DNA of 64,000 nucleotides. It comes from a virus. The notes under the pieces were generated by a model, which was not told the origin of the DNA, made no database searches, and saw nothing but the letters and a program-made list of their open reading frames with translations. The position numbers and the translations under genes are program-made. Below are positions 4,299 to 28,078 of this stretch, piece after piece. Position 1 is the first letter of the stretch. Every line of letters starts with the position of its first letter. The DNA is taken from positions 32,001-96,000 of the IMG/VR virus record IMGVR_UViG_3300033233_000009; one strand, written 5' to 3'.

Positions 4299-5339
4299 AT
4301 GTCCTACGGAATCCCGAATCCATACGTCGCGACAACGCACCCGTACCCCTCTCCCGCCACAGGCGGAAAGGGTGGTAGCTGGATCCGCCCCGTACACACG
4401 TTTCCTTACATGCGGTCCGTCCAGAGCGTATTCCTCCCCAGTCATTTCAACGACGGCAACCCGGCGCTCCGCGGGCTCGGTGACGTGAACGCCGCGAACG
4501 GCGTGTTCGGCACGTCGCAGGGTGGCGGCGGCGTGTTCGGGCCGTCGCTGTACGGGCTCGGGGACACAGGCGAGGACATCGACGCCATCGCGGCGTTCAT
4601 CCTGAACAGTCGCACCACCTCGCCGGCTGCCTTCGACGTCCAGACCCACTTCCGCGCCTGGTACAACGGGCTGTACTTCTGGCAGAAGGACGACGACGCG
4701 AAGGCGAAAGCAGAGAACTACAGGAGACAGTTCATCGACGCGAACGCGGTCGTCAGCAAGGCTACGGCGCCGACCAGCACCGCCCCGGCGCCGTCGTTCA
4801 TGCCGATGATCAACGACCCCAACGCGCCGGTCGCGACGAAGGGCCCGACTGCGCCTGCGCTCACGGGCCAGGCCAGTGGCCAGAGTGGCGACCCGCGCGT
4901 GAGCGAGCTTCAGGGCTACCTGAACCGTGTGCTCAAGACGGCGGGGCTGACCGCGCTTGACCAGGATGGCAAGCTCGGCGCGAAGGGCTGCGGCGCCATC
5001 GCGTGGTACCGCGGGCCGGGACGCTCCCTGGCAAGCGCGAGCACCGCGGCGGCGATCGACGCGAACCTCGGTGCGATGGGCGCGATCTACGCCTCGGTCT
5101 GCGCGGTCAAGGGCTCGACCGCGCCGGGCGGCGGGGGCGCCACGACGGTGAAGGCGCCTTCCGTGTACGTGGCGACGCCTCCGGTGGCGACGCCTCCGGT
5201 GGCGACGCCGCCCGTGGCACCTCCGCCGGAGGAGCCCGCGAAGGCGAGCGCCATGGGCGCGGGCACGTGGGCGATGATCGGTGGCGGATTGCTTGCCGTC
5301 GGGCTCGCGGTCGTGGGAAAGAAGAAGGGCTGGTTCTGA
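4299..5339 (+). CDS. Putative virion membrane protein with peptidoglycan-binding-like domain and C-terminal TM anchor
   Basis: ELQGYLN..DGKLGAKGC; TM WAMIGGGLLAVGLAVVG followed by KKK; GLG motifs. Confidence 0.65.
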   Translation: MSYGIPNPYVATTHPYPSPATGGKGGSWIRPVHTFPYMRSVQSVFLPSHFNDGNPALRGLGDVNAANGVFGTSQGGGGVFGPSLYGLGDTGEDIDAIAAFILNSRTTSPAAFDVQTHFRAWYNGLYFWQKDDDAKAKAENYRRQFIDANAVVSKATAPTSTAPAPSFMPMINDPNAPVATKGPTAPALTGQASGQSGDPRVSELQGYLNRVLKTAGLTALDQDGKLGAKGCGAIAWYRGPGRSLASASTAAAIDANLGAMGAIYASVCAVKGSTAPGGGGATTVKAPSVYVATPPVATPPVATPPVAPPPEEPAKASAMGAGTWAMIGGGLLAVGLAVVGKKKGWF

Positions 5340-5343
5340 TCCC

Positions 5344-7047
5344 ATGTCCCTCGGTTCACTCGGCAGCAGCAGGCGGCGGTCCAGCACGAACGGCGTGCTG
5401 GGCGGTCACCTCGGTGCCGTGCCGAGCCAGTGGACCGCGGATTCGCGCGTCAAGGCGCTGCAAGCCGCGCTGAACACGCAGATGGCGGCGGCGGGCTGCA
5501 CCACCGCGCTGACGGCCGACGGGCTGATCGGGCCCGGGACGTGCGGCGCCCTCGCCTGGTCGAAGGCGACCGGCGCGCCCCCGAGCGCGTACCAGACCTA
5601 CGCGGCGGACTTCGACGGGGGCTGCAAGGCGTTCACGCCCAAGGCGCCGGCCTGCCCGGCGGTCACTGCCACGGCGCCTGCCACCACCACCACCACCACC
5701 ACGGCGACGGCACCGGCGGGCACGTACGGCCTGCCCTTCGCGCTCGGAGTGAAGGACCCGACGGTGCTGAAGTGGCAGTACATGCTGAACACCGAGCTGG
5801 ACGCGCGCGGGATCCCGACCGTGCCGGAGGACGGGGTGTTCAGTCTGGCGACGTGCGCGGGCTTCGGGGCGTTCGGGCGCTCTTACAACGAGGCGCCGAA
5901 CGAGCCGACGCCGGACGATACCTTCGCGGGCATCGTGGCGCAGTACCAGAAGGGCATCGTCGCCGCCTGCGCAGCCCTGGCGCAGCCCGCGACGACGACC
6001 GCGCCGCCGGCCACCACGACCACGACCACGACCGCGCCGCCTCCCGCTACCACGCCGTCGGCGAGCGCGAGCGACCTGATGCGCCAGCAGCAGACGATGC
6101 TCAACGCCTGGCTCGCGAGCGTCGGGTATCTACCGATCCCGGTGAGCGGCGTGTGGGACGGGCGGACCTGCGGCGCGGGGCAGCTACTCGCCAAGACCCT
6201 GCCCGACACCGACCCGACGAAGATCGCGCTGGCCGGCGTGCTGGCGAAGATCAAGCCGCTGCTCGGGATGCCGTGCGGCGTGACCGTGCAGCCGATCGCG
6301 CCCTCGCGACCGGCGGTCGCTCCGCCGTCGAGCGCGCAGATCCTCCAGATGCAGAAGCTGCTCAACGCCGAGGTGCTCCGGCCCGGCAGCTACCGGCTGC
6401 TCGCGGAGGACGGGAAGCTCTCGGCGGCGACATGCGGCGCGGCGAGCGACACCGCGGCGGCGGCGAGCATCGGCCGGATCCGCGTGTCGGCGACGCTCCA
6501 GGCCCTGCTCGACCACACGGGGCTGCTCCCGGGCTGCCTGCCGCTGAAGCCCTGGCAGTTCCCGCAGACGGCGACGCCGATCGTGGCGAGCCGTTCCGCG
6601 TCGCTGCCGCCGCTGAACCGCGACGGCGAGTGCGTGATCAACTTCGGGCAGAAGTACGCCGAGATCGGCCTGCTGCAACAGCAGATGAACGCCACGCTCG
6701 CGAGCAACGGCTACAAGCCGATCCCCGTCACGAGCGCGTGGGACGCGGCGACCTGCGGCGCGCTGTTCGAGCTGGGAGGGAAGTTCTCGCCGCGCTCGTC
6801 GAGCGGGTGCCCGCACGCCTACTCGGTGCCGCTCACGTGCCCGACGGTGGCGCGACCGGCCAAGGTGGTGGTGGCGCCGCCGCCCACGAAGCTGCCGGTG
6901 CCGCCTCCCCCTCCGCTCGCTCCGGTGAAGCGGGCCAGCATGGCGCTCCCGCTCGGCATCGCCGCCCTGGTCGGCATCGGAGCGCTCGTCTACGCGAAGA
7001 AGAAGGGCCTCATCATGGCTGCGAAGAAGGCAACGGTGAAAGCATGA
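5344..7047 (+). CDS. Putative virion protein with about 5 Cys-containing peptidoglycan-binding-like repeats and C-terminal TM
   Basis: Repeated Q..LN...DGxxGxxTCGA units, Thr/Pro linkers, TM plus KKKG; start reassigned to ATG 5344. Confidence 0.65.
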   Translation: MSLGSLGSSRRRSSTNGVLGGHLGAVPSQWTADSRVKALQAALNTQMAAAGCTTALTADGLIGPGTCGALAWSKATGAPPSAYQTYAADFDGGCKAFTPKAPACPAVTATAPATTTTTTTATAPAGTYGLPFALGVKDPTVLKWQYMLNTELDARGIPTVPEDGVFSLATCAGFGAFGRSYNEAPNEPTPDDTFAGIVAQYQKGIVAACAALAQPATTTAPPATTTTTTTAPPPATTPSASASDLMRQQQTMLNAWLASVGYLPIPVSGVWDGRTCGAGQLLAKTLPDTDPTKIALAGVLAKIKPLLGMPCGVTVQPIAPSRPAVAPPSSAQILQMQKLLNAEVLRPGSYRLLAEDGKLSAATCGAASDTAAAASIGRIRVSATLQALLDHTGLLPGCLPLKPWQFPQTATPIVASRSASLPPLNRDGECVINFGQKYAEIGLLQQQMNATLASNGYKPIPVTSAWDAATCGALFELGGKFSPRSSSGCPHAYSVPLTCPTVARPAKVVVAPPPTKLPVPPPPPLAPVKRASMALPLGIAALVGIGALVYAKKKGLIMAAKKATVKA

Positions 7048-8003
7048 ACGGCATCCTCGGTAGCCCTACGGGGCTCGGCGTGTTCGCGGGCAGGCAGGGG
7101 CTCGGTGCGACCTACCCGTTCGGCAAGTACTCGGACGACACCAAGGCGTTGCAGCGCCAGGTGAACGCCTGGCTTGCGGCCACCGGCCTGGCCGTGGTCG
7201 CGGAGGACGGGCTGCTCGGGCAGCGCACGTGCGGCGCGCTTCGCAAGGCGAAGATGGAGGTCCCGAGCACGTGCAGTGGCTTCGTGGAGCCGACCCCGGG
7301 CTACTACCCCTGGAACAACTACAGCGCGGACACCAAGGCGTTGCAGGCCGTGCTCGCCGCCCGGTTCCCGAGCGTGAAGGTGGACGGTATCCTCGGGCCG
7401 CTGACGTGCGGCGCCGGCAAGGCTGCGGGGCGGTACCCCGCGACCTGCGAGAGCTTCACCCTCCCGGAGGGCGCGGTCGTCTCGGCCGGGCCGTCGGTGG
7501 CCCCCGCTCCCGCGGCGGCGCCCGGGAAGGCCGTGGACTGGGTGGCGCTGGCGGCGTACGCGGCGGCGGTCAAGGCGCAGAACGACAAGCGCGCGGCCGA
7601 CCTGCTCGCGTACGCGGCGGCGGTGAAGGCGGACAAGGACCGGCAGAACCTGCTCGCGTACGCGGCGGCGGTGAAGGCCGCGAACGACAAGAAGGCTGCC
7701 GACCTGCTCGCGTACGTGGCCGCGGTGAAGGCCGCGCAGGCTGCCAAGAAGCCCGCGCCGCGCCCGCCCGCTGCACGCGCGGTGACGGTGGCCAAGCCGA
7801 AGGTCAGCGCGGCCACGCCTGTCCCGCCGCCGCCGGCTCCTCCGCCGCCCGCGCCGGATCCGGCGCTGGAGCCCGCGCACGCCTCCGCGGAGATCGCGGA
7901 GGCCGGCATGAGCATGACCACCAAGCTCGCCCTCGGCGTAGGCGTCGTCGCGGTGGTAGGCTACATGGTGTTCTTCAGGAAGCCGTCGCCGAAGGCCGCG
8001 TGA
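7044..8003 (+). CDS. Putative virion protein with two PG-binding-like repeats, AYAAAVKA helical repeats and C-terminal TM
   Basis: YSxDTKALQ..DGxLGxxTCGA twice; ATG overlaps the upstream stop. Confidence 0.65.
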   Translation: MNGILGSPTGLGVFAGRQGLGATYPFGKYSDDTKALQRQVNAWLAATGLAVVAEDGLLGQRTCGALRKAKMEVPSTCSGFVEPTPGYYPWNNYSADTKALQAVLAARFPSVKVDGILGPLTCGAGKAAGRYPATCESFTLPEGAVVSAGPSVAPAPAAAPGKAVDWVALAAYAAAVKAQNDKRAADLLAYAAAVKADKDRQNLLAYAAAVKAANDKKAADLLAYVAAVKAAQAAKKPAPRPPAARAVTVAKPKVSAATPVPPPPAPPPPAPDPALEPAHASAEIAEAGMSMTTKLALGVGVVAVVGYMVFFRKPSPKAA

Positions 8004-8023
8004 TGCCGCGATAGGATCCCAAG

Positions 8024-8341
8024 ATGCGTAGAATTTATACCTCGACAGCGCACTTCCGCGCTCCGTACGACACCGCGAACATCAGCTTCGCCGGACTCGG
8101 CGTGCTCGGTTCGGATCACCGCGCGTACGACGCGAACCGATGGCCCGCGCGGCGGAGCTACTTCGACGTCTCGCAGTACCGCGCTCCGCTGCGTGCCGGC
8201 TACTACCAGTCGGGCGCGCTCCGCGGCGCCGAGGCACCGGAGGCGCAGGCAAGCATGACTGGCGCGCAGAAGTGGACGATCGTGGCGGTCATCCTCGGCT
8301 CCATCGCGCTCGGCGTCCTGGGCGACAAGCTGAAGGCGTGA
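8024..8341 (+). CDS. Small membrane protein with GLG motif and C-terminal TM
   Basis: WTIVAVILGSIALGVLG; internal HFRAPY/QYRAPL repeat. Confidence 0.6.
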   Translation: MRRIYTSTAHFRAPYDTANISFAGLGVLGSDHRAYDANRWPARRSYFDVSQYRAPLRAGYYQSGALRGAEAPEAQASMTGAQKWTIVAVILGSIALGVLGDKLKA

Positions 8342-8345
8342 GCCG

Positions 8346-8567
8346 GTGACGGCGCAGCTACCGAGCACCGCGGTCGTGGCGCCGGCCGACAGCGCCATGC
8401 CGCCTGCCGTACGGCGCTACGCCCTGACCGGGGTGGTGCCGAGCGCGTTCCGGCGGGATCTGGTCACGGCGACCAACCAGATCCCCCGCTGGGGCTACGT
8501 GGCGCTCGCGCTCGTGTCGGCGTGGCTCGCAGCGCGGGCCTACGGCGAGGACCGACCGAAAACTTGA
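8346..8567 (+). CDS. Small membrane protein
   Basis: TM WGYVALALVSAWLAA; fills the gap between genes. Confidence 0.5.
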   Translation: MTAQLPSTAVVAPADSAMPPAVRRYALTGVVPSAFRRDLVTATNQIPRWGYVALALVSAWLAARAYGEDRPKT

Positions 8568-8593
8568 CCCTCGGGGGCTCGCAGCGGGAAGCT
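8556..8593 (+). promoter_or_regulatory. Promoter CCGAAAAC-TTGACC-N18-GAAGCT
   Basis: Same motif and spacing as 12579 and 21901; ATG 6 nt downstream. Confidence 0.6.
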
Positions 8594-8599
8594 AACCCG

Positions 8600-9145
8600 A
8601 TGCGAAGGCAAACAAGCGGGCTCGGTGTGCTGGGCGGGCCTGACGTGCTCGGTGGCGCGCTGGGCGACCAGGCGGAGGACATCGACACCATCGCGAAGTA
8701 TATGTCCGGTACGCCGTACCGGACGGAAGCCGCGCGGAAGATTCAGGACGAGTGGAAGGTCTGGCTCGACGGCGTGAGCTGGTGGGACAAGAACTACGAC
8801 CGGCCGACATACGACCACGCTCGGAACCTCCGCAACTCCTTCAACAAGGCCAACGCGACGACCGCAGCGGAGGCGGCGGCGGCGGAGCACGTCATCAAGA
8901 CCGGCATGACCACCGAGACGATGACGGGCGGCGCCTCGCGGATCACGTCGGGGGGCACCTTCTCGGAAAAGGACGGCGGCACCGTGGCGCTGCCGCTGTG
9001 GGCGAAGTTCGGCATCGGCGTGGCGATTGCCGGGCTCGGGATCTATGCGCTGCGCGAGCTGCGCCTGTTCGCCACGCTGTTCAAGAAGGCGCCGAAGACC
9101 GGGCACACGCCGAACCGCCGGTCACGCCGGAGGGCTCGCGCGTGA
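8600..9145 (+). CDS. Membrane protein sharing a domain with 4299-5339
   Basis: GDQAEDIDTIAKY..W..G..WW.K vs GDTGEDIDAIAAF..WYNGLYFWQK; TM plus basic tail. Confidence 0.65.
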   Translation: MRRQTSGLGVLGGPDVLGGALGDQAEDIDTIAKYMSGTPYRTEAARKIQDEWKVWLDGVSWWDKNYDRPTYDHARNLRNSFNKANATTAAEAAAAEHVIKTGMTTETMTGGASRITSGGTFSEKDGGTVALPLWAKFGIGVAIAGLGIYALRELRLFATLFKKAPKTGHTPNRRSRRRARA

Positions 9146-9585
9146 TCTACTCCCGCTGGCGCCCGGACACGGGCGGCTACGACTACTTCCAGTCCGCGGA
9201 ACGCCGTGGGCTCGGCGACGATCTGCCCGTGCCGAAGCTCTACGGGGGCACGGCCATCGGCGTGGCCAGCACCGACATCGGGCGCCCTGCGCCGGGTGCG
9301 CTGCGCCCCGCCGGCAGCGGGCCGGTGGCGAAGGGGTCAATTCTGCCGCTGTCGCGGCAGGGGCTGAGCAGCATCGACTGGATGGGGAGCGGCGGCGTGG
9401 TCGCGGGCGTGCTGTTCTTCGGGGCGCTGGCGGCGTTCGTCGCGGTGCCGGGTGCGGTCGGTGGGTACCTGACGGCCGCGGCGCTCAAGAAGGACAAGAA
9501 GAAGTGGGCGATCTACGGCGCGGTCGGCGCGCCCGTGGCGCTGTTCGGCTGGAACGCGGTCGAGAAGCTGCGGTTGCGGAAATGA
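9142..9585 (+). CDS. Membrane protein with 2-3 TM segments
   Basis: GTG overlaps the upstream stop; hydrophobic C-half; RRGLGDD. Confidence 0.6.
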   Translation: MIYSRWRPDTGGYDYFQSAERRGLGDDLPVPKLYGGTAIGVASTDIGRPAPGALRPAGSGPVAKGSILPLSRQGLSSIDWMGSGGVVAGVLFFGALAAFVAVPGAVGGYLTAAALKKDKKKWAIYGAVGAPVALFGWNAVEKLRLRK

Positions 9586-10163
9586 GACGCTACGAGCGCA
9601 ACTTCGACGCGCGCCGCGCGGCCACGTCGCTTCGGGAGAAGTTCATCGACGCGCCTGCCACGAAGGAGCAGGTGATGCGGTGGGAGTGGCCGAAGGAAAT
9701 GCAGGAGGTCGGGCGCTGGGATGCGGGCGAGGGTGCGGTGATGTACGCATCCTCAAAGTGGCAGAAAAACCCCAGCAAGGTGATCGACTACAAGCACCTC
9801 GCCGAGGGCCCGCAGCGCCTGCTCGTACTGCCGGGTTTCCTGCGTGACTACCACCGGCCGGGGTCGAAGATCCCGGTCACGGGACCGATGGTCGAGCTGG
9901 ACGGGCCGCTGCCCGAAGCGTTCGCGGTGCTCGCGCCCATCCTCGGGATCCAGGCACGCCTGTACGACGGCGGCACCGAGGGGGAACCGGAGCTGTCGGA
10001 TGACAGCCTGTACCAGATCAACATCGCGAACGCGACGCTCGCCGCGGCGAAGCATCCGCGTACCGGGCAGACGTTCCTGTTCGTCTACACCGAGAAGGAA
10101 GGGCCGCTCTGCGTCATCACGGGCGACATCCTCGACGTGGAGAAGGACGGGATCGTAGGGTAG
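9582..10163 (+). CDS. Hypothetical protein
   Basis: ATGA overlap, protein-like composition. Confidence 0.65.
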   Translation: MRRYERNFDARRAATSLREKFIDAPATKEQVMRWEWPKEMQEVGRWDAGEGAVMYASSKWQKNPSKVIDYKHLAEGPQRLLVLPGFLRDYHRPGSKIPVTGPMVELDGPLPEAFAVLAPILGIQARLYDGGTEGEPELSDDSLYQINIANATLAAAKHPRTGQTFLFVYTEKEGPLCVITGDILDVEKDGIVG

Positions 10164-10166: not shown

Positions 10167-12590
10167 ATGGCGTACGCGAGCACGCGCGGGTTCGGCCTGG
10201 GCGCCGAGGCATCGGCCGGCGCGTCGCTGGCGACGCCCGGATTGCCCACGGTCGCGTGGGCGCCGCCGCAGGTGCGGTTCAACGCGGCCGACTACCAGCC
10301 CCAGACATTCGCGCAGGCGCAGTTTGCGAAGTGGTCGCACTCGTCGATGCAGGCGGACATCGAGAAGGGCCGCGCGCAGCTTTCCGCCAAGCTCGGTGTG
10401 ACGCTCCCGAAGCTGCCGGCGATGGGGCAATCGGAGGTCACGAGCTGGACGGCGGCGTACGCGCTGGCGCACGGCGTCCCCACGAACTTCGAGGACGGGG
10501 CGAAGATGGTGACCGCGTTCGCGCACGCGCAGGCTGCGAAGCTGGGCGTGCCGCCGGAGTGGATCGCGGCGGCCGACGTGCTGATGCACCCGCCGACGAC
10601 GACGGCAGAAGCCACCGCGCTCGTCGCGGACGTCGGCAAGGCGTATTTCGCGAAGTACGGCATCGCGCTCCTCCAGAACGAGCTGATGAGCGTCAGCACG
10701 AACCTCGCGATGGTGACGCAGGCGATCCCGGTGGAGTTCGCGGTCGCCGGGTTCGACGCGCTGAAGGACGGCAAGCTGACGGGCGAGGAAATCGCCGGCA
10801 TCGCCGTGCAGGCGGCGGCGTACGCCTGCGGCATGCTCCTCCAGGGGATCGGGATCCCGGCGCCGCTCGGGGCGCTCATTGGAGGGGTGATTGCGGGGCA
10901 GCTCTCGGCGGTCGCGGACAACGTGATTCACGCGGACGACGCGGATACGCGCGCGCGCAAGGCCGCGTACGCCGCGCTCGACAAGCAGCGCGAGGCGCTG
11001 ATGACGGAATGCGCGAGCGCCGCCCAGGAGACGTGGAACAAGACGCAGGAGTACTGGGATCAGGTGCTCGGGCGCATCCAGGCGCTCCTCGACGTGCCGG
11101 CCATTGCCGCGCGGATCCGCGCGGCGGGAGGGATCCGGTACTACGGCCGCAACGTGGTCCAGCTCCCGGCCGGGGTCGTGCTGCCCGAGACCAGCAGCGT
11201 CGTGGCCAAGCGGTTTCGGGAGCCGGGCGACTGGGAGGCGTGGGCAAAGCAGGCCGAGGCGGACGCGAAGGCCGCAGAAGCAATCGCAAAGAAGCACTAC
11301 GGATCCAGAGACGCCGGCCCCTACATCGCCAAGGCGGGAGCGGCACGCAAGCGCGCAACCGATCTGGCCAAGAAGGCCGCGGAGCAGCCCAGGCTGCCGC
11401 TGTACGAGTACGGCTTCGACTGCCTGTGGTGGGAGGGACAGCTCGACCACCGGCAGGGCCAGCCGGTGCTGCCGCGGAACGCGCGCCCGTTTCCCGACGG
11501 CTGCCTCTACTACGGGCGCGTCCGACCCACCGGCGTGTGGGTGGGGAGTGAGCAGAAGCTCGACCCGGCGCAGTGGATGCAGGGCCCCTACTGGGTGGAT
11601 CCGAGCCGAGTCTGGGAGCGCTGCGCTGCGCGATCCTCCATGCGGTGGTACCCGTCGTTCCGGGCAGGGGACACCGACGAGTCGTGCAGCGCGGCGATGA
11701 AGGTCGCGGCCGAGTTCCGCTTCGACTTCACGCCCGATTATGAGACGCGCAAGATGAACGTGCGGCTCACTCCGTACACCGACCACCAGAGTGCGGTACG
11801 GACGAAGATCGTCACGATCACGCGGGGCGCGCTCGTGGACGGCGCGCCGAACGCACAGGCCGCGCTCCAGTTCTGGGGCGCGAAGCGGCCGACCTCGCCG
11901 GTGCTCTACTCGGACGGCTCCGATGCGTCGCAGTGGAAGCAGTTTGCCTACATCGACCCGGGCGCGATGGAGGTGCACAAGGTCGCCGGGAGCCTCACGG
12001 CGAAGCTGAACCTGCCGTTCGACTACTGCGACGTGAACCAGTGGATGGCGGCGGTGCAGACCGCGGCGGCGGCGTCGGCGCTCGTGGAGCAGGACATCGT
12101 CCGCACGGTGGCGTGGCAGGCCGGCGCGGAGGAGGCCCGGAGGGTCGCAGCCGACTGGCAGAAGCTCGCGGCGCTGACACCCGACCAGCAGCAGCAGCTC
12201 GTCGCCTACGCGAAGGCGGCGCAGACGGAGAAGGAGAACTGGGCGAAGCTCGCGGCGCTGACGCCGGAGCAGCAACGCCAGCTCGTCGCGTACGCTGCGC
12301 AGCAGGCCGAGCAGCGGCGCCAGCTCCTCGCCTACGCGGCGGCGCTGAAGGCCAAGCAGCAGTCGGACATGATCGCCGCGCGGGCCAACCGGGCCCTGCT
12401 CCAGGCGAAGGCGCTCGGGGCGGCGCGGGCGGCGTCGGGCGCGTACGCCGTGGCGCTGAAGGCCCGGCTCGGCTACCAGGCGGCGCAGATGAGCCAGCGG
12501 ACGACGCTACTCCTGGGCGGCCTGGCGATCGGGGCCTTCCTGCTGTGGAAGGTCGCTACGGGCAGCAAGCGGGCCCGACCGAAAACTTGA
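10167..12590 (+). CDS. Large (807 aa) membrane-associated protein, candidate entry/DNA-delivery protein
   Basis: Gly-rich hydrophobic stretch GMLLQGIGIPAPLGALIGGVIAG, coiled-coil segments, C-terminal TM plus basic tail. Confidence 0.55.
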   Translation: MAYASTRGFGLGAEASAGASLATPGLPTVAWAPPQVRFNAADYQPQTFAQAQFAKWSHSSMQADIEKGRAQLSAKLGVTLPKLPAMGQSEVTSWTAAYALAHGVPTNFEDGAKMVTAFAHAQAAKLGVPPEWIAAADVLMHPPTTTAEATALVADVGKAYFAKYGIALLQNELMSVSTNLAMVTQAIPVEFAVAGFDALKDGKLTGEEIAGIAVQAAAYACGMLLQGIGIPAPLGALIGGVIAGQLSAVADNVIHADDADTRARKAAYAALDKQREALMTECASAAQETWNKTQEYWDQVLGRIQALLDVPAIAARIRAAGGIRYYGRNVVQLPAGVVLPETSSVVAKRFREPGDWEAWAKQAEADAKAAEAIAKKHYGSRDAGPYIAKAGAARKRATDLAKKAAEQPRLPLYEYGFDCLWWEGQLDHRQGQPVLPRNARPFPDGCLYYGRVRPTGVWVGSEQKLDPAQWMQGPYWVDPSRVWERCAARSSMRWYPSFRAGDTDESCSAAMKVAAEFRFDFTPDYETRKMNVRLTPYTDHQSAVRTKIVTITRGALVDGAPNAQAALQFWGAKRPTSPVLYSDGSDASQWKQFAYIDPGAMEVHKVAGSLTAKLNLPFDYCDVNQWMAAVQTAAAASALVEQDIVRTVAWQAGAEEARRVAADWQKLAALTPDQQQQLVAYAKAAQTEKENWAKLAALTPEQQRQLVAYAAQQAEQRRQLLAYAAALKAKQQSDMIAARANRALLQAKALGAARAASGAYAVALKARLGYQAAQMSQRTTLLLGGLAIGAFLLWKVATGSKRARPKT

Positions 12591-12623: not shown

Positions 12624-13217
12624 ATGAGCTACCACGTGAACCCGATCGCCCGGAGCCTGCCTCGCCTCGGCGCTCGGTCCGTCGGAGGGCTCGGTACGGT
12701 GGCCCCGCCTCCGGTGCTCCACGCGGCGCCGCGCCCGCTCACCGCCGCGGACTGGGCGAACATCGCGGCCTACGCGAAGGCGGTCAAGGCGGCCGAGGCA
12801 GCGAAGGTGACCGCGCCGCCCCCGCCCACGACCGTGCCGGTGGTGTCGCTCGCGACGCTGGTCAGCAAGCTCCAAGCGAAGGGCGCGACCCCCGACGAGG
12901 TCGGCTACTTCCAGGCGTGCATGACCGACAAGCTCGGCGACAAGCCGCCCACGGCGTGCGAAACGGAGGCTCGGAGCCTGGCAAAGCTCTCGGCGGAGGG
13001 GCTCGCGTTCTACAAGTCGTGCGCGAGCCAGCGCGCCGCGGACATGCCGGTCCGCACGCAGCACTCCGCGTGCTACGGCGAGGCGCTCAAGATCGCGAGC
13101 GGCGGCGCGGCGCCGGATGGCGGTGGCGCGACGACGACCGCCGGCATGGGCACCACGAAGTGGCTGCTGATCGGCGGCGTCGCGGTGGCGCTCTACTTCC
13201 TCGTGATCCGCAGGTAG
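12624..13217 (+). CDS. Cys-containing membrane-anchored protein
   Basis: PPVLHAA.RPLTA.DWANI module, 4 Cys, C-terminal TM. Confidence 0.6.
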   Translation: MSYHVNPIARSLPRLGARSVGGLGTVAPPPVLHAAPRPLTAADWANIAAYAKAVKAAEAAKVTAPPPPTTVPVVSLATLVSKLQAKGATPDEVGYFQACMTDKLGDKPPTACETEARSLAKLSAEGLAFYKSCASQRAADMPVRTQHSACYGEALKIASGGAAPDGGGATTTAGMGTTKWLLIGGVAVALYFLVIRR

Positions 13218-18625: not shown

Positions 18626-18637
18626 GAGCACACCGAG

Positions 18638-19396: not shown

Positions 19397-20275
19397 ATGC
19401 AGCCCAGCTTCCGCGAACAGATGCTCGCCTCGTTCCAGGCGGTGAATCCCCACATGGCGCTGGGCGCTGCGCCGCCGCAGCCGGAGCCGGCCGCGAGCTT
19501 CAAGGAGACGAGCATCAACAAGGTGGTCCAGGCGGGCGGCGAGGTTGCGGCGCGCTTCATGCACCCGACGTTCCTGCCGTTCGAGAAGCTGTACCGGAAG
19601 TTCCCGCAGCAGGGCGTGTTCACGGCGACGCCACAAAACAACTTCGTGCTGGAGCTGGGGTCGTTCCGGGTGCCGCAGCAGATGGCGTTCGCCCTGGTGG
19701 ACTACCGCTTCGACCTGTACCGGCTGTCAGGGGCGGCAGCGGGCGACTGGGTGCCGCTGGAGGAGCGGCGCCTGTCGGGCCAGATCGGCTACGACGTGCT
19801 GATCGCTGACTACCGCAAGGCAAACCTGTCGTACGAGCTGGACCCGACGGAAATCCAGGCGGCGAAGGAGGCGAGCGAGCAGCCGCCGAGCCCCGGCATC
19901 ATCGCGGCGGGCGCGGAGTTCAACAACAATTTCCCGCCGCAGATCGGCAACCCGCTGTTCCCGCCGAGCGCGGCGCCGTTCGGCGCGAGCCTCACCGACT
20001 TCGCGAACGCGCGCGCGGCCGCTGCGTCGTCGCCGGGTGGCCCCGGGCTGTCGCTCATGCCGCAGCGCCACGAGCGGCTCGGGCCGCTGCCGCTGCCCTT
20101 CACGCTGATGGTGCGCGAGAACCAGCGCGTGACGTTCAAGGCCGTCGTGTTCCGGCCGGTGCCGATCCCGCTGGCGTTCTTCGAGGTGGACGTGACCGGC
20201 GTGCTCATGCCGGCGAACGTCGCCGATTCGCTGCTCGCCGCGATGGCGCCCTACGTGCCGCAGGGGAGGCACTGA
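19397..20275 (+). CDS. Beta-rich protein, possible third jelly-roll protein
   Basis: FRVPQQMAF, PFTLMVRENQRVTFKAVV, FFEVDVTGVLM resemble the patterns in 16110 and 17010. Confidence 0.4.
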   Translation: MQPSFREQMLASFQAVNPHMALGAAPPQPEPAASFKETSINKVVQAGGEVAARFMHPTFLPFEKLYRKFPQQGVFTATPQNNFVLELGSFRVPQQMAFALVDYRFDLYRLSGAAAGDWVPLEERRLSGQIGYDVLIADYRKANLSYELDPTEIQAAKEASEQPPSPGIIAAGAEFNNNFPPQIGNPLFPPSAAPFGASLTDFANARAAAASSPGGPGLSLMPQRHERLGPLPLPFTLMVRENQRVTFKAVVFRPVPIPLAFFEVDVTGVLMPANVADSLLAAMAPYVPQGRH

Positions 20276-20447
20276 TGCCGAGCGGGCTCCAGTCTACGGG
20301 CGGCGACGCTCTCGGGTGCTTTCTTCTTCGTCGTCGGCAGCACCGTGACGCCTCGTGCGCTCCCGCAACTCAAAAAGTGGGAGTCAGCGAGATCGTCCTC
20401 GAAACGAGGGTGTCGCCTCCCGTTCTATTCCGGCGGGAGGTGCGACC

Positions 20448-21215
20448 GTGAACGGCAGCCCCGCGTACTACCGTCCGCAGGCGGCACTGGCGCTGGCAAC
20501 CGACAGCGGCGACGCCGCGCTCGGCAAGGGGCAGAGCCTCGCGGTCGAGACGATGCTGCGCACCGTGCGATCGAGCCATGCGTTCGATCCGCTCGGCGTC
20601 TACGTGCCGTGGGCACGGCAGAAGGGCGGTGTCACCTGGGAGACGATCGCGGAGCCGGACCACGACCTCGTGCTCTACCCGATCAGCGCCGCGACGGTCG
20701 ATCGGGTGAACGCGGCGTCCTACGGCCACGAGCTGCCGTGGGTCGGCGTGGTCGCCGAGGCACCGACGAACAGCCGGACGGCTGACGAGGTGTGGGACGC
20801 GACGCGGTACGATCTGTTCGCGGTCGAGGGGCTGTACGACGTGAACGATGCGCGGCCGGCGCCGCGGATCTGTTTCCTCTACTGGGCAAAGCTCCACGAT
20901 GACGTGGGCGGCGGGCGAGCGTCGCTCGATGCGGTCGCGCAGCGGCTTGGAGGGCGACTCGTGTTCCCGATGCACGTGCCGGTCACCGATCCGCGCCGGC
21001 CGCCGTCGCTACCCTTCCAGATGGTGCTGAACGCGCAGCTTGCCGGCCCGGAGGCGTTGCCCGAGCTGGCAGGCTTCGGCGCGGAGGCGAGCGCAGCAGC
21101 GGCAGCCGCGGCACCGCCCGCGACCCGGAGCGCGCTGCCGTGGCTGGCGCTCGCCGCCGCGGCAGGCGGCGCCGTGTGGCTCGCGCTGCGCGGCGGGAAG
21201 CGAAGGAAGCGGTGA
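20448..21215 (+). CDS. Hypothetical protein with C-terminal TM and basic tail
   Basis: GGAGG before GTG 20448; LPWLALAAAAGGAVWLAL-RGGKRRKR. Confidence 0.6.
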   Translation: MNGSPAYYRPQAALALATDSGDAALGKGQSLAVETMLRTVRSSHAFDPLGVYVPWARQKGGVTWETIAEPDHDLVLYPISAATVDRVNAASYGHELPWVGVVAEAPTNSRTADEVWDATRYDLFAVEGLYDVNDARPAPRICFLYWAKLHDDVGGGRASLDAVAQRLGGRLVFPMHVPVTDPRRPPSLPFQMVLNAQLAGPEALPELAGFGAEASAAAAAAAPPATRSALPWLALAAAAGGAVWLALRGGKRRKR

Positions 21216-21218
21216 GCG

Positions 21219-21449
21219 ATGCCGACCTTCATGGCGACGCCGACCGACGTGCTGAAGCTGGTGCACACCGCACGGAAGCTCGACGCGAATCCGTTTTCGC
21301 TCGCGGGCAAGCTCGTGGGGCTCGGCGCGGACGAGCAGCGGGCGGGCATCCCGGCGTGGGCCTGGGTGCTCGCGGGAGTGGGGGTCGGGGTGGCACTCGG
21401 CTGGAAGCTCGCGCCGACCGCGCGGGCGCGACTCAAGGCGTTCTCCTGA
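21219..21449 (+). CDS. Small membrane protein
   Basis: TM AWAWVLAGVGVGVALGW. Confidence 0.6.
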   Translation: MPTFMATPTDVLKLVHTARKLDANPFSLAGKLVGLGADEQRAGIPAWAWVLAGVGVGVALGWKLAPTARARLKAFS

Positions 21450-21467
21450 ACCAAAGGACAAGTAACC

Positions 21468-21878
21468 ATGGCATTTGCACTCGCAGTCGGTGACCTCGTG
21501 TCCCCCCTCGCCGTCGCGGCCTTCGCGTCCAGCACCGAGCCGCCGCTCCTCGGCGTCGTCACGAAGATCAGCCCCACGACCGTGGTGTGGCAGGATGGGC
21601 GCGAGGTGACCTACACGCCCTCGACGGGCGCCTCGGTGGACGAGGGGCTGTCGAAATTCGAGCCGACCCTCGGCACACCCTTCCAGAACGCGAAGGTGCG
21701 GCCGAACGGGACGATTCCGTTCCCGAACCCTGCCGGTCGCGCGGAGGGCTTCGTGGTGCTCGTCGGCAACGTCACCAACGCCCTCGTGACGGCACTACCG
21801 ACGGCGATCATCCGCTTCGGCAACGGCCTCTACACGGCGGTGCCCGTCTCCGGCATCGAGGTGATCCCGGGCGCCTGA
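21468..21878 (+). CDS. Hypothetical beta-rich protein, paralog of 48924-49358
   Basis: MAFALAVGDLVS..VVWQDGREVT vs MAFVLGDVVS..VLWEDGRVVT. Confidence 0.65.
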   Translation: MAFALAVGDLVSPLAVAAFASSTEPPLLGVVTKISPTTVVWQDGREVTYTPSTGASVDEGLSKFEPTLGTPFQNAKVRPNGTIPFPNPAGRAEGFVVLVGNVTNALVTALPTAIIRFGNGLYTAVPVSGIEVIPGA

Positions 21879-21900
21879 GAGGCCCGCCGCTCTCCCGATA

Positions 21901-21938
21901 CCGAAAACTTGACGGCGAGCCGGGCAGCCGGCGAGCAT
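21901..21938 (+). promoter_or_regulatory. Promoter CCGAAAAC-TTGACG-N18-GAGCAT
   Basis: Recurrent motif in an intergenic position. Confidence 0.55.
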
Positions 21939-21955
21939 GAAGGAACAGGCAAACC

Positions 21956-22360
21956 ATGTCGCTCAATCAGATGGCGTACCAGTCCGGCGTGCTCGGGGCC
22001 CTGCCCCCGGCTCCCGCCTTCCGCTCGGGCTCGCTCGGCGTGCTCGGCTTCGTGCCGCCGGTGTCCGGTGCGGTGCGCTCGGGCTCGCTCGGCATCCTGG
22101 GGGCGCCCCCACCGAGCGGCGCCGTGAAGTCCGGCGTGCTCGGCACGCTCGGTGGCGGCCCGCCTCCCTCCGGTGCGGTGCGCTCCGGCTCGCTCGGTGT
22201 ACTCGGCGAGTACTTCGCGCAGAACGGCCTCGGTGCCGATGCGGTCGTGATGCCCACCGCGGTGGGGCCGAAGCCCGCCATGGCGACCCTCACCATGGCC
22301 ATCGCTGGCCTGGGCGCGGTCGCCGCGATCTGGTGGGCCATGACCCGCCGGCACGCCTGA
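21956..22360 (+). CDS. Repetitive membrane protein (SGAVRSGSLG repeats, GEYFAQNGLG, C-terminal TM); carries the self-protospacer
   Basis: Internal repeats; shares a DNA motif with the core protein gene. Confidence 0.7.
   Translation: MSLNQMAYQSGVLGALPPAPAFRSGSLGVLGFVPPVSGAVRSGSLGILGAPPPSGAVKSGVLGTLGGGPPPSGAVRSGSLGVLGEYFAQNGLGADAVVMPTAVGPKPAMATLTMAIAGLGAVAAIWWAMTRRHA
22153..22188 (+). other. Protospacer identical to CRISPR spacer 5
   Basis: tggcggcccgcctccctccggtgcggtgcgctccgg at both 22153-22188 and 33554-33589 (36/36). Confidence 0.95.
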
Positions 22361-22456: not shown

Positions 22457-23077
22457 ATGGCGGACCTGCTCGAAACCCTCGGCCGCGTCGTCCTGACCTT
22501 CCAGTCCGCTCCGCAGGGCGTGCCGGGCAGGATCTGGGACGAGCTGCGTCCGTGGTTCGGGCGGCTCGTGGTGAGCGCGGCGCCGAAGTGGCTACCGCGC
22601 CTGTCGTTCGGCTTCGCGTGCTCGGTGCCGCATCCGAACGGCGCGGCCTGTCCGCGGCCCGCCATCGCGGCCTGCGATGTGTGCGGCCAGCCCTGCTGCC
22701 TCGACCACGCGCGCATCGACCAGTACGGCGACGCGATCTGCTACCTCTGCTGCATCGAGGCGATCCGGCGGAAGCAGGCCGAGCGCGCCGGGGAGCCAGC
22801 GCCGGGGCACGGTCACGCCCAGGGGGGCCATGCCGGGCACGGGCATGGGCCGCAGCCGACCCCTGAAAAGGAGCTGGCCTGGGCCCGCAAGACGCTCGGC
22901 GTGAAGAAGGGCGCGGACTGGGAAGAAGTGCGCGCGGCGCACCGTAGACTCTCCGCGAAGTGGCACCCCGATCGCCATCAGGGCGCGGGCTACCAGGCAG
23001 CCGAGGACCGGTTCAAGCAGGTACAGAGAGCGTTCGACTTGCTCACGAAGGAACGTGAGCGAAAGGAAGCGGCGTGA
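22457..23077 (+). CDS. Zinc-finger plus C-terminal J-domain (DnaJ-like) protein
   Basis: CxxC motifs; ARKTLGV..EVRAAHRRLSAKWHPDRH..RFKQVQRAFDLL. Confidence 0.85.
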   Translation: MADLLETLGRVVLTFQSAPQGVPGRIWDELRPWFGRLVVSAAPKWLPRLSFGFACSVPHPNGAACPRPAIAACDVCGQPCCLDHARIDQYGDAICYLCCIEAIRRKQAERAGEPAPGHGHAQGGHAGHGHGPQPTPEKELAWARKTLGVKKGADWEEVRAAHRRLSAKWHPDRHQGAGYQAAEDRFKQVQRAFDLLTKERERKEAA

Positions 23078-24581: not shown

Positions 24582-24604
24582 GAGGCGGGAAGGCAAGCAA
24601 CCCC

Positions 24605-25276
24605 ATGTCATACGATCGCGTGAACCCGACCTACTACCAGACGTTCCAGCAGGACACGCCCTTCCACGCCGGATCGGAGGGCTGGACGAGGTCGCCCTGG
24701 CCGACCTGGGGCGACAACCCGAACCTCGCGGGTCGGCGCACGCTCGCGACCGACGGGCTCGGTGGCTGCGGGTGCGCGGGAGCGTCCGGGCTCGGCACCG
24801 TCCTGGCAATCTCGGGGCTCGGCACCGTCGCGGTGACCAAGCCGGCGCCGTACTCCGCGCCCGCTCGGGCGACCATGGGCAACCCGGCGTCGGAGAACTG
24901 CGTCGCGAAGGGCGGCACGGTCCAGGTCGTCGAGACGCCAGCGGGGCAGAGCGGGATCTGCGTGTTGCCGAACGGCACCCGGTGCGAGGAGTGGGCGCTG
25001 TTCCGCGGCCAGTGCGGCCCGGCGGCGGCGAGCATGTTCCCTCCCATCCCCGAGCAGCCTGCCTGGAAGAAGGCGCTCAGCATGGCGGCGGGGGCCGCCT
25101 GCGCCTACCACGGCTTCAAGCGGAACGAGTCGGCAGGCTGGGCGGTCGCGTGGGCCGCGTTCGGCAGCACGATCCCCCTTCTGGCGCTCCCCATTGCGCT
25201 CGCGCAGGGCTTCGGGAAGCCGGCGCGGAAGCCCGCGATGGCAGCGAACAGGCGGCGCGGTCGCGCCCGGCGCTGA
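24605..25276 (+). CDS. DUF333-containing membrane protein
   Basis: MGNPASENCVAKGG..GICVLPNGTRCEEWALFRGQC; C-terminal TMs; GLG motifs. Confidence 0.75.
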   Translation: MSYDRVNPTYYQTFQQDTPFHAGSEGWTRSPWPTWGDNPNLAGRRTLATDGLGGCGCAGASGLGTVLAISGLGTVAVTKPAPYSAPARATMGNPASENCVAKGGTVQVVETPAGQSGICVLPNGTRCEEWALFRGQCGPAAASMFPPIPEQPAWKKALSMAAGAACAYHGFKRNESAGWAVAWAAFGSTIPLLALPIALAQGFGKPARKPAMAANRRRGRARR

Positions 25277-25282
25277 GCCCGA

Positions 25283-25320
25283 CCGGAAACTTGCCGGCCC
25301 CCGACCGGGGGGCGTAGCCT
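25283..25320 (+). promoter_or_regulatory. Promoter CCGGAAAC-TTGCCG-N18-TAGCCT (leaderless)
   Basis: ATG 6 nt after -10; spacer contains a hairpin. Confidence 0.5.
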
Positions 25321-25326
25321 CGGGGC

Positions 25327-26490
25327 ATGGACTACTACCGCGTCGGCTACGCACAGTCCCCGCTCGTTCCCATGGGGATGGGCTCCTCGCCCGACGGCCT
25401 CGGCGCGTACTTCCAGACGACGTACCAGCAGCCGATCCGCGCGGTGCACGGCGGCACGAGCACGGTGGCGGCCTACCAGCCGATCGATGGGCTCGGCGCG
25501 TACTTCGCGACGACGTACCAGCAGCCGATCCGTCCGGCGCAAGGCGGCGCGAGCATCATCGCGGACTACAAGCCGATCGACGGGCTCGGGGAGCTGACGC
25601 CCGCCCAGCGCAGCGCAGTCGCCTGGGCCTCGCTCCTCGGCTTCGTCGGGTGGGGCAGCGGGCTCCTGGCGCGGGGCCCCGTCTACGCCCGCAAGCGCGG
25701 CCCGTGGGTACCGCTGGCCGGCGCGGCGGCCGGCGTGGCGGTGGGCTACGCGATCGGCACGCGGCGGGCTACCGCCCCGCCTGCGCCCACGGCTGGCCTT
25801 GGCGCGTGCCTCCCGTGCATGGCAGCGGCCGCGGGCCTCGGTGCGGATGCGGTGCCGGCGGCGACGCCCTCCGCACTCAGCAAGCCATGGGTCAAGGTCG
25901 CGCTCGGTGTCGGCGCCGTCACGCTCGCCTGGTACACCGTGCCGGCGTTCCGCAAGCTGTGGGGTCCCGGTGGCGCGCTCGCGAAGAACAAGCGGCACCG
26001 GCGGAACGCGCACACGGGCGGACCCGACGATCACGTTTACGCGCCAAGCGGGATGCGTGGCTGGGATGCCTGCGCGAGGTGCGGTTACGCCCGCGGACAG
26101 CACCTCACTGCTGCCGAGCTAAAGCGACTCCGCTCGCTCACGCCGAACCGCCGCCGCAGGCACCGGAAGAACGCGAAGTGGTCGGGCAAGGCGAAGCGGA
26201 GCCTGCCGGACACCAGCTTCCTCTACGTTGCGCCCGGCGGCCACGCGCGCATCGAGGGCGGCAAGAAGGTCACCATCCCGCGGAGCCTGCGGAAGTTCCC
26301 GTACCGCACGGCGGCGGGCAACATCGACCTGCCGCACCTGCGGAACGCCATCGCGCGCATCCCGCAGTCGAACCTGCCGGAGAGCCAGCGCACGCTGCTC
26401 CAGGCGAAGGCCCGCGCCATCCTCGCCGAGCACGGCGGGTACAAGCGCGCGCGCAAGGCGGCGGGCGGCGTGCTCCGACAGGCGGCGTGA
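25327..26490 (+). CDS. Modular membrane protein: DGLGAYF repeats, TMs, basic C-terminal phage-type domain
   Basis: 2x DGLGAYFxTTYQQPIR; LPDTSF..RKFPY..DLPHLRNAIAR. Confidence 0.65.
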   Translation: MDYYRVGYAQSPLVPMGMGSSPDGLGAYFQTTYQQPIRAVHGGTSTVAAYQPIDGLGAYFATTYQQPIRPAQGGASIIADYKPIDGLGELTPAQRSAVAWASLLGFVGWGSGLLARGPVYARKRGPWVPLAGAAAGVAVGYAIGTRRATAPPAPTAGLGACLPCMAAAAGLGADAVPAATPSALSKPWVKVALGVGAVTLAWYTVPAFRKLWGPGGALAKNKRHRRNAHTGGPDDHVYAPSGMRGWDACARCGYARGQHLTAAELKRLRSLTPNRRRRHRKNAKWSGKAKRSLPDTSFLYVAPGGHARIEGGKKVTIPRSLRKFPYRTAAGNIDLPHLRNAIARIPQSNLPESQRTLLQAKARAILAEHGGYKRARKAAGGVLRQAA

Positions 26491-26552
26491 TGGCCAGGAG
26501 ACGCCCGAAGCCCGAGAGGCCCGACTCGGATCAAACGCTGGCCAAGGCGTAA

Positions 26553-27359
26553 GTGTCCTACGCCGCCGCCCTGCCGCTCGCCCGCTCCCAGCGCCGCCCG
26601 CTCGGGGCTGGCGCAGGCGTAGGCGAGTTCTACCTCCGGCAGTGGCCGATCATGGTGGCGCCGCGGGTGCGGGCGTACCGGCTCGCGCGCGCGATGGCCG
26701 GCTCGCTCGGAGCGACGGTACTGGGCGGCACACGGATCCCCGACAAGCTGACGCCGCTGACGCCGGAGCAGGCCGCGCAGGCGCTGGCGACGGCGTACCA
26801 GCGCGTGACGGGCAAGGTGGCCGACCAGCGGGTGCTCGGGCTCCTGATCGGGCAGACCGCGCTCGAAACCGGCAACTGGAAGTCGCTGCACAACTACGGG
26901 TTCGGAAACGTCAAGGCCACGGCGAGCGACCCGTACTACGCCGGCTTCCGGTGCTGGGAAGTGGTGAACGGCGAGAAGGTCTGGTACGAAGCCGACCACC
27001 CGGCGTGTCAGTTCGCGGCGCACCTCACCGCGGCCGACGGCGCGGAGCACTATGTACGAATCCTTCAGCGCCGTCCCCACTGGTGGGCGGGCCTGGAGTC
27101 GCGCACGGTACCAGGGTTCGTCGCGGGGCTCACGACGCGCCCCGCCTACTTCACGGCCGACCCGGGCACGTACGAGCGGGTGCTCTCCGAGCGGATGGGG
27201 CAGTACGCCGACCAGGCCGTGAAGTACGCCGGGCAGGCGGTGGAGTTCGCGGGCAAGCACAAGGTCGCGGTGGGAGGCACGGTCGTGGGCGTGTTCGCCC
27301 TCACGTTCGGATCCTGGTATCTCTACAACGCGATGACCAGCAAGCGGAAGGCGGCCTGA
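26553..27359 (+). CDS. Lysozyme-fold peptidoglycan hydrolase (GH73/FlgJ-like) with C-terminal TM
   Basis: GQTALETGNW..NYGFGNVKA..YFTADP; TM plus KRK. Confidence 0.65.
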   Translation: MSYAAALPLARSQRRPLGAGAGVGEFYLRQWPIMVAPRVRAYRLARAMAGSLGATVLGGTRIPDKLTPLTPEQAAQALATAYQRVTGKVADQRVLGLLIGQTALETGNWKSLHNYGFGNVKATASDPYYAGFRCWEVVNGEKVWYEADHPACQFAAHLTAADGAEHYVRILQRRPHWWAGLESRTVPGFVAGLTTRPAYFTADPGTYERVLSERMGQYADQAVKYAGQAVEFAGKHKVAVGGTVVGVFALTFGSWYLYNAMTSKRKAA

Positions 27360-27484
27360 CCATGGCCAAGGCATTGAGTAAGGCGGCACGCGAGGTCGCG
27401 GCCGAGACACTCTGGACGAGGCAATCAAAATGCTGGCGCGTGCGCGAGGCGCTATGATGCACGCTCGCAGGAGACTGCGCTGAC

Positions 27485-28078
27485 GTGAAGCTCGACCCGA
27501 CCATCATCCTGCTCGGTGTCGGTGGCGCGCTCGTCGGCTACGGCGTCTACCACGCACTCGCGAAGCGCGGCACCGTGCCGGCGCCGCCGTGGGTCCAGCC
27601 GGATGGGAAGCCGGAAGTGACCGGGCCACCGCCGCCTGGCCTGCTGAAGTCCGAGCCGCTGATCCAGCAACTGCTCCCGAGCCTCCAGCCGATGGCGCGC
27701 GAGACGCTCCAGCGCGCGTTCAACATCGGCATCCCGCTCGTGGTGACGCAGGGCTACCGCAGCCCGGCGACGCAGGCGGCGCTCTACGCGCAGGGACGCA
27801 CCGCGCCGGGCGCGGTCGTGACCAACGCGCCGCCGGGGTGGTCGTGGCACGAGTACCGGCGCGCGTTCGACGTGGCCGTGCTGGACGCCCGCGGGAACCC
27901 GACCTGGCCAAACGACGTGGCGCTGTGGAGCCGCATCGGGCAGTGCGGGAAGGAGGCCGGCCTGGAGTGGGGAGGGGACTGGACGGGCATCATCGACCGG
28001 CCGCACTTCCAGCACACGGGCGGGATGACCATGGCGCAGGCCCGCGCGGGGCAGAGCCCCGCGTCGCTGGTGGCGTGA
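27485..28078 (+). CDS. M15 family L-Ala-D-Glu peptidase (endolysin-like) with N-terminal TM
   Basis: GYRS..Q..LYAQGRT..VTNA..SWHEY..AFDV..EWGGDW..DRPHFQ. Confidence 0.9.
   Translation: MKLDPTIILLGVGGALVGYGVYHALAKRGTVPAPPWVQPDGKPEVTGPPPPGLLKSEPLIQQLLPSLQPMARETLQRAFNIGIPLVVTQGYRSPATQAALYAQGRTAPGAVVTNAPPGWSWHEYRRAFDVAVLDARGNPTWPNDVALWSRIGQCGKEAGLEWGGDWTGIIDRPHFQHTGGMTMAQARAGQSPASLVA

Follow-up and report, generated by a model that had tools for sequence, protein, structure and literature searches.

Among the described viruses with a jelly-roll shell over a membrane, three groups stand closest to the DNA studied here. In SPV1, single jelly-roll capsid proteins cover an inner membrane; the virus has a nucleoprotein core in which a basic nucleocapsid protein condenses the DNA, carries CRISPR arrays of its own and lacks a packaging ATPase (PMC8459092 and the accessible part of PMC8812541). 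According to the accessible part of PMC5332951, the best-conserved genes of the Helvetiavirae include that of an FtsK/HerA-type packaging ATPase, and alphasphaerolipovirus genomes measure ∼30 kb; for prokaryotic double jelly-roll viruses the accessible part of PMC8812541 gives genomes of <20 kbp. Together with the 20 kb of SPV1 (PMC8459092), the known non-tailed membrane viruses of bacteria and archaea are thus small. Here we analysed a window of 64,000 nucleotides, bases 32001–96000 of one 124,597-bp contig (70% G+C) that IMG/VR holds as virus record IMGVR_UViG_3300033233_000009 (G000; linear class, CheckV completeness estimate 69%). We propose, with moderate confidence, that the genes at positions 4299–28078 of this window serve to build and release the virions of very large bacterial viruses that have no tail, contain an internal membrane, use two single jelly-roll capsid proteins and belong to an undescribed lineage. 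A sequence-only reading had taken the segment for the virion module of a much larger relative of the known internal-membrane viruses, possibly of an undescribed lineage, and this was supported: the complete relatives span 143,727–179,401 bp, and no published description of such a lineage was found in the literature searched. The proposal centers on four genes:

13861–15891, + strand: g13, polybasic protein with two predicted transmembrane helices, 676 residues, isoelectric point (pI) 12.0
16110–16868, + strand: g14, candidate major capsid protein with a predicted single jelly-roll fold, 252 residues
17010–17972, + strand: g15, second candidate major capsid protein, long N-terminal helix (residues 4–62) and a jelly-roll domain, 320 residues
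19397–20275, + strand: g18, soluble orphan, 292 residues, 42 homologues

Conservation of these genes was assessed in 30 IMG/VR loci with a relative of g14, using 10 kb on each side of it (contigs of 9–182 kb, some with terminal repeats). All the loci (30/30) have a relative of g15 downstream on the same strand, in 22 cases within 600 bp. The g18 relative (21/30 loci) always lies ≤4 kb downstream of the g15 homologue, and that of g13 is present in 26/30, in 24 of which it ends upstream of the g14 homologue at a distance of ≤1.5 kb. The order g13-g14-g15-g18 is thus kept in 24/26 cases for g13 and 21/21 for g18, and no other gene of the lineage is as conserved as g14 and g15. At E≤1e-3 g14 has 655 homologues, the best 120 of which are ≥70% identical, and g15 has 569 (best 120, ≥57% identical), which begin at the ATG of 17010. 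A whole-library profile search gained distant and shorter (∼200 residues) g14 relatives, which were included in alignment A4. In GenBank, tblastn of g14 and g15 against 50,697 phage records gave no match, and no nucleotide similarity of the module to GenBank phages was detected.

The AlphaFold2 model of g14, built from alignment A4, is a beta sandwich with one helix (predicted local distance difference test, pLDDT, 82.8; predicted template modelling score, pTM, 0.81). The g15 model is weaker (pLDDT 64.8, pTM 0.56) and shows the helix 4–62 followed by a beta domain. The Foldseek lists against the PDB consist almost wholly of jelly-roll capsid proteins for both models, including those of SPV1, SH1, HHIV-2 and HCIV-1. 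In a second structural comparison, g14 scored 8.6 with SPV1, 7.5 with VP17, 7.2 with VP16-VP17 and 7.1 with SH1; the beta domain of g15 scored 7.5 with a PBCV-1 capsid chain, 7.4–7.5 with SPV1 (137/178 residues), 6.7 with the major capsid protein of SGIV, 6.5 with ASFV p72, 6.5 with P23-77 and 6.4 with SH1. In BFVD the top match of g14 is an unnamed viral protein (E 7e-4, probability 1.0), and SPV1 VP4 follows with a probability of 0.94. The sequence-only reading had expected P23-77-like capsid folds. Single jelly rolls are indeed what both proteins model as, and the nearest structure is SPV1, not P23-77. From these models we infer a capsid role for g14 and g15. They would be two single-barrel proteins encoded together, as in Helvetiavirae, and g14 and g15 model as the SPV1-type single jelly-roll capsid protein that is a feature of Portogloboviridae.

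The same reading had grouped g14, g15 and g18 as three soluble proteins sharing strand motifs. The three open reading frames (ORFs) exist and have no clear transmembrane segment; the common motif did not hold up, as profile-profile comparison with hhalign (alignments A1, A2 and A3) gave probabilities of 0.3–0.4%. For g18 the sole lead in the Atlas is the PM2 coat family pair P2_N/P2_C, at a score of only 0.76, and a search against PDB sequences gave no match; we regard the protein as a candidate vertex, penton or further capsid protein. A complex prediction of g14 with g15 (residues 66–320) scored 0.00, which counts neither for nor against binding.

We then consider the hallmarks of tailed phages and of packaging motors. 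Six-frame searches with seven Pfam families (TerL_ATPase, Terminase_6N, Phage_capsid, Phage_portal, FtsK_SpoIIIE, DUF87 and Pox_A32) gave no match at E≤1 in either of two records, G000 and its colinear relative G001 (IMGVR_UViG_3300012157_000001; 179,401 bp, 64.6% G+C, rated complete, with a 33-bp terminal direct repeat). FtsK_SpoIIIE, Terminase_6N and Phage_capsid were also absent from four further relatives, three of them rated complete and two with terminal repeats. Pfam and PHROG scans covered ∼70 G000 proteins (nearly all large ones) and 16 different large proteins specific to G001, and neither set contained a tailed-phage or motor hallmark. For the module itself, where the sequence-only reading had seen no terminase, portal, HK97 or tail motif, Pfam and PHROGs likewise returned no terminase, portal, HK97, head or tail family. 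On the remaining contig, where the reading had advised looking for a terminase/portal or an A32/FtsK-HerA ATPase, none of these was found, nor was an HK97 capsid. The packaging ATPase had been placed outside the window; none lies within it, but none was detected elsewhere on the contig or in the searched relatives. Scans for Walker-A motifs returned only DnaB-like, DnaC-like, ChlI and MoxR-like P-loops. Judged by these profile searches, a packaging ATPase seems to be absent from the whole lineage, not just from the window.

Several candidates were examined and rejected in the course of these searches. The ComM/ChlI-like AAA+ protein at 1759–3405 was set aside as a substitute packaging motor, since the Mg_chelatase family occurs in only 3/5 relatives (2/4 complete ones) and is therefore no core motor. 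In the window this ChlI/ComM-type protein, which has a Lon-like N-terminal domain, is encoded by a separate gene, and in G001 the Mg_chelatase domain lies inside a 1124-residue open frame (G001:2966–6469). Two G001 orphans without a PHROG were considered as terminase or portal: by eye, the 450-residue one results from translating a CRISPR array, and the 693-residue one resembles the Cas12m-like gene of the window. The latter belongs to G001 145039–148505 (− strand), where a 693-residue Cas12m-like protein adjoins a CRISPR array, in a position different from that of the cassette in the window's genome.

A number of observations weigh against the proposed reading. The confidence of the g15 model is only moderate (pLDDT 64.8), and neither model has a Foldseek match in the PDB at E≤1e-3. 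When alignments A1, A2 and A4 were run as profiles against the sequences of all PDB chains, no capsid protein appeared at E≤10. Tailed-phage chains do occur lower in the structural match lists (Pam1 5.8, KHP40 5.1, the fibre of phage 7-7-1 6.0–6.2), and jelly rolls are also found in tailed phages, where they make up cement, decoration and fibre domains. The six-frame hallmark search covered seven Pfam families, and several large orphans are unexplained (genome 17996–20845, 949 residues, with a 934-residue homologue in G001; a 1027-residue polyprotein; g11, 807 residues); these may hide an HK97 protein, portal or terminase that has diverged very far. A collagen-like protein of G001 matches 'tail fiber' PHROGs (E 2e-17). 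We know of no precedent for a genome of 140–180 kb in a motor-less, membrane-lined capsid. Finally, the part of the preprint 10.64898/2026.09.14.751636 available to us assigns the myxobacterial virus group MV-1, which carries Cas12m with CRISPR, DnaJ and an integrase, to the Caudoviricetes, and states that all six of its groups, MV-1 included, have HK97, TerL, portal and tail proteins. Cas12m with CRISPR, DnaJ and integrase are common to MV-1, as described, and the present genome; if MV-1 is a relative, its annotation contradicts our proposal.

The strongest of the alternatives, which we nevertheless hold to be unlikely, is that of a tailed phage (Caudoviricetes) in which capsid, portal and terminase have diverged too far for Pfam and PHROGs, the jelly rolls are decoration, cement or receptor-binding proteins, and the membrane proteins act in lysis, superinfection exclusion or envelope remodelling. 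Genomes of 125–180 kb are typical of tailed phages, and the unexplained orphans (807–1027 residues), the tail-fibre matches and the proteins given for the Cas12m-bearing MV-1 in the accessible part of the preprint would all fit. It is opposed by the missing hallmarks (all seven families in two records and three families in four more, with four complete genomes among the six), by the lack of a structural PHROG in any scanned protein and by the lack of g14 and g15 relatives among the GenBank phage records. Moreover, conservation in the lineage is highest for the jelly-roll pair and not for a terminase or portal, and the tail-fibre matches fall on Gly-Pro-Thr collagen repeats. The collagen-like protein concerned (G001 129454–130224, − strand) has a beta-rich C-terminal part and no counterpart in the window's incomplete contig; it is a possible vertex fibre.

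The module is dominated by membrane-anchored proteins, as the sequence-only reading had stated. Genes were called by G+C content at third codon positions (GC3), which gave 27 genes within 4299–28078, all on the + strand like every other gene of the window that passes GC3, and 71 in the rest of the window. In a Kyte-Doolittle scan (19-residue window, threshold 1.4), a hydrophobic segment was found in 20/27 module genes versus 12/71 elsewhere, and a C-terminal anchor (segment ≤35 residues from the C-terminus), mostly followed by a K/R-rich tail, in 16/27 versus 5/71. The 20 include two marginal segments (19397–20275 and 21468–21878) that probably do not belong to membrane proteins. From the predicted folds and the 16 C-anchored proteins we infer a membrane and a tailless icosahedral virion.

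The basic core-like protein that had been singled out was confirmed in g13. Residues 1–430 are 30% K+R with a net charge of +118 and contain three copies of a 28-residue basic repeat; two predicted transmembrane helices and an acidic Gly/Ala-rich tail follow, in which NGLGEYFAQ occurs three times, encoded by a 27-nucleotide tandem repeat at 15421–15519. Judging from its composition, g13 is a candidate membrane-anchored DNA-condensing core protein. Because the packaging ATPase is apparently missing, as in SPV1, a membrane-anchored g13, with its gene directly upstream of those for the capsid proteins, would be the natural choice for a protein that condenses and encloses the DNA.

Taken together, we envisage the following scheme. 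g14 and g15 would make up the vertical jelly-roll capsomers of an icosahedral shell with a lipid vesicle beneath it, and the vesicle would carry ∼14–16 C-anchored viral proteins, at least three of them with peptidoglycan (PG)-binding domains (7044–8003, 17987–18625 and 18638–19381). The polybasic g13, with its two transmembrane helices, would neutralise the DNA and tie it to the membrane, so that the genome would be enclosed by condensation and wrapping, in an SPV1-like way, rather than by motor pumping. During infection, passage of the membrane through the cell wall may be aided by the PG-binding membrane proteins, in the way suggested for viruses of the PRD1 type. At exit, the N-anchored M15 peptidase (27485–28078) would lyse the host. 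The internal membrane, the lack of a tail and the mode of packaging in this scheme are proposals.

The remaining genes of the module are as follows:

4299–5339, + strand: g3, C-anchored membrane protein with a Pro/Thr-rich linker, 346 residues, transmembrane (TM) segment 321–339 followed by GKKKGWF; no Pfam or PHROG family
5344–7047, + strand: g4, C-anchored protein with repeated PG-binding-like modules, 567 residues, TM 531–549; PG_binding_1 at E 6e-4, below the cut-off
7044–8003, + strand: g5, C-anchored protein with a PG_binding_3 domain (E 1.6e-5; 25.5 bits, cut-off 24.6), 319 residues, TM 293–311
8024–9585, + strand: g6–g9, four small membrane proteins by TM calls (105, 73, 193 and 147 residues)
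9582–10163, + strand: g10, soluble conserved orphan, 193 residues, no TM segment; no Pfam family
10167–12590, + strand: g11, C-anchored protein with a hydrophobic patch at 212–254 and an Ala/Gln-rich helical region, 807 residues; no Pfam or PHROG family
12624–13217, + strand: g12, C-anchored membrane protein, 197 residues, TM 177–195; no Pfam family
17987–19381, + strand: g16 (17987–18625, 212 residues) and g17 (18638–19381, 247 residues), C-anchored proteins with PG_binding_1 (E 3.7e-11 and 8.1e-11), TM 189–207 and 227–245
20355–22360, + strand: g19–g22, C-anchored proteins of 286, 76 and 134 residues and a 136-residue protein (Kyte-Doolittle scan)
22457–23077, + strand: g23, protein with a Cys-rich N-terminal part and a C-terminal J domain (DnaJ E 7.9e-14, residues 146–204), 206 residues
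23074–27359, + strand: g24–g28, two soluble proteins (one of 163 residues and an acidic one of 259), a DUF333 membrane protein, a 387-residue membrane/basic protein and a 268-residue C-anchored protein (TM calls)
27485–28078, + strand: g29, N-anchored M15 peptidase (endolysin; Peptidase_M15_4 E 6.8e-12), 197 residues, TM 3–21

Relatives of g10 and g23 are each found in 21/30 loci, those of g10 including distant ones; g9 (17/30), g19 (15/30) and g11 (10/30) are less widespread, and g24–g28 are partly conserved in G001. g10 is a candidate minor or vertex virion protein (an Atlas search with it was uninformative, the Atlas model being poor), and g23 may, by its J domain, be an assembly co-chaperone. 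The endolysin g29 matches PHROG endolysin families at E 2.9e-29, and DUF333 was found in the membrane protein 24605–25276 (E 1.8e-22). A by-eye reading of 26553–27359 as a glucosaminidase was dropped, as no Pfam family stands behind it. An ORF of 857 residues (5430–8003) in the mechanical list is an artefact: the coding frame, of high GC3, switches at ∼7047, and the real genes are 5344–7047 and 7044–8003, which overlap at stop and start (ATGA). Tandem repeats of 54 nucleotides lie within g5 (7554–7732) and g22. The tripeptide G[LMF]G is six-fold more frequent in the module (6.2 per 1000 residues, versus 1.0 elsewhere), the motif GLG[EA]YF recurs in the membrane proteins of 13861–15891, 21956–22360 and 25327–26490, and many module proteins start with M-S/D-Y; as sequence features, these may be docking or processing signals. 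An HNH endonuclease gene of low GC3 (3408–4295, + strand; Pfam HNH E 1.9e-9), which the GC3 call overlooked, separates the ChlI/ComM-like gene from the first gene for a membrane protein; it is probably a mobile insertion.

The abundance of anchored proteins (16/27) bears on a second alternative, which we also judge unlikely and rank behind the tailed phage: an outer-enveloped, pleomorphic or non-icosahedral particle in which the jelly rolls form a matrix or nucleocapsid layer and the PG-binding proteins sit in an external envelope. On such an envelope the PG-binding domains would face outward, the long N-terminal helix of the g15 model could be accommodated, and the failure to find a packaging motor fits assembly by budding or wrapping. 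Yet the best structural matches are the capsomer-forming vertical jelly rolls of icosahedral internal-membrane viruses, and the N-anchored endolysin points to lytic release and not to budding. That there is no virion module at all, and that the genes belong to a plasmid-like or integrative element with an envelope-remodelling, secretion or transfer apparatus, is very improbable: many membrane and PG-binding proteins, the integrase, RecET, restriction-modification system, CRISPR-Cas12m system and MoxR-VWA pair elsewhere on the contig and the missing packaging enzyme would suit it, but no conjugation ATPase was found either (FtsK_SpoIIIE and DUF87, 0 matches), both jelly-roll models match capsid proteins best, the 30 related IMG/VR contigs include some with terminal repeats, and phage-type endolysin, ThyX and kinase genes are present.

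Gene content outside the module agrees with a viral element. By Pfam and PHROGs, G000 encodes RecE/RecT, a helicase, the ChlI/ComM-type AAA+ protein, an integrase, methyltransferases, a GHKL ATPase, a MoxR/VWA-type protein with an intein, ThyX, a DUF3310 kinase and glycosyltransferases; neither tRNAs in the window nor Rfam families in positions 1–31200 were detected. About 35 kb of G001 (120.6–156 kb) has no counterpart in the window's contig, and the genes specific to G001 include glycosyltransferases, an SNF2 helicase, methylases, an apiosidase, an FG-GAP protein, an HNH endonuclease and a second endolysin. We take the element to be a virus: its record is a virus record, G001 has terminal repeats, and RecE/RecT, ThyX, the DUF3310 kinase and the PHROG-matching endolysin are present. 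The PG_binding_1/3 domains and the M15 endolysin indicate a bacterial host. Nine contigs of metagenome-assembled genomes (MAGs) with g14 relatives are labelled Pirellulales (two), Planctomycetota, Phycisphaeraceae, Pseudomonadota, Pseudomonadales, Deltaproteobacteria, Acidobacteriota and a Methanomicrobiales archaeon, so that four labels are related to Planctomycetota; one further homologue is labelled Gemmatimonadales. The differing labels probably reflect mis-binning and are not host evidence.

More tentatively, and with less confidence than in the tailless internal-membrane module itself, we suggest an unnamed, widespread bacterial lineage in which an SPV1-like, single jelly-roll, membrane-lined capsid holds 140–180 kb of DNA that is neutralised by a g13-type protein and is enclosed without an NTP (nucleoside triphosphate)-driven motor. 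Hundreds of metagenome homologues and 30 IMG/VR contigs belong to the lineage. Prokaryotic viruses with large genomes are taken to be tailed, and such contigs are probably filed as Caudoviricetes by default, which would hide their abundance. If the proposal is true, the vertical jelly-roll architecture sets no limit to capsid size in prokaryotes.

Compared with the PRD1/PM2-type phages (Tectiviridae, Corticoviridae), the module is similarly rich in small membrane proteins; the viral membrane of PRD1 also has proteins directed at the cell wall associated with it. Among the Atlas clusters with a Pfam family, those nearest to 19397–20275 are the PM2 coat families P2_N/P2_C, at the low score given above. 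PRD1/PM2-type phages have a single, double-barrel capsid protein and mostly an FtsK-HerA ATPase, whereas both proteins modelled here are single barrels.

The Helvetiavirae (Sphaerolipoviridae, Simuloviridae and Matshushitaviridae, with P23-77, SH1, HHIV-2 and HCIV-1) share adjoining single jelly-roll genes that are the most conserved ones. Their virions are tailless with an internal membrane, and a virion of this kind is proposed here. Unlike Helvetiavirae, the present lineage gave no match to FtsK_SpoIIIE in six records or to DUF87 and Pox_A32 in two, its genomes are 5–10 times larger, and its proteins have no sequence similarity to theirs. An ATPase of great divergence may have escaped these family searches.

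Portogloboviridae (SPV1) resemble the lineage in single jelly rolls and CRISPR. That no ATPase family was found here agrees with SPV1, and a polybasic protein is encoded next to the candidate capsid proteins. SPV1 differs in that it is archaeal (Saccharolobus) and non-lytic, with a circular 20-kb genome of 45 ORFs as against complete relatives of 144–179 kb, whereas the PG-binding domains and M15 endolysin point to a bacterial host here; the proteins share no sequence similarity. SPV1 VP4 forms hexamers and VP10 pentamers, and g14 and g15 are candidate capsid proteins only. The basic protein of the present lineage is membrane-anchored and a candidate counterpart of SPV1 VP1 at most. Should the motor-less reading be true, the lineage would be a second, bacterial case of genome enclosure without an ATPase, and the largest genomes of non-tailed prokaryotic viruses would be several times the size known so far. 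It would then be a bacterial sister of, or bridge between, Portogloboviridae and Helvetiavirae, and a testable intermediate on the proposed path from SPV1-like ancestors to Helvetiavirae.

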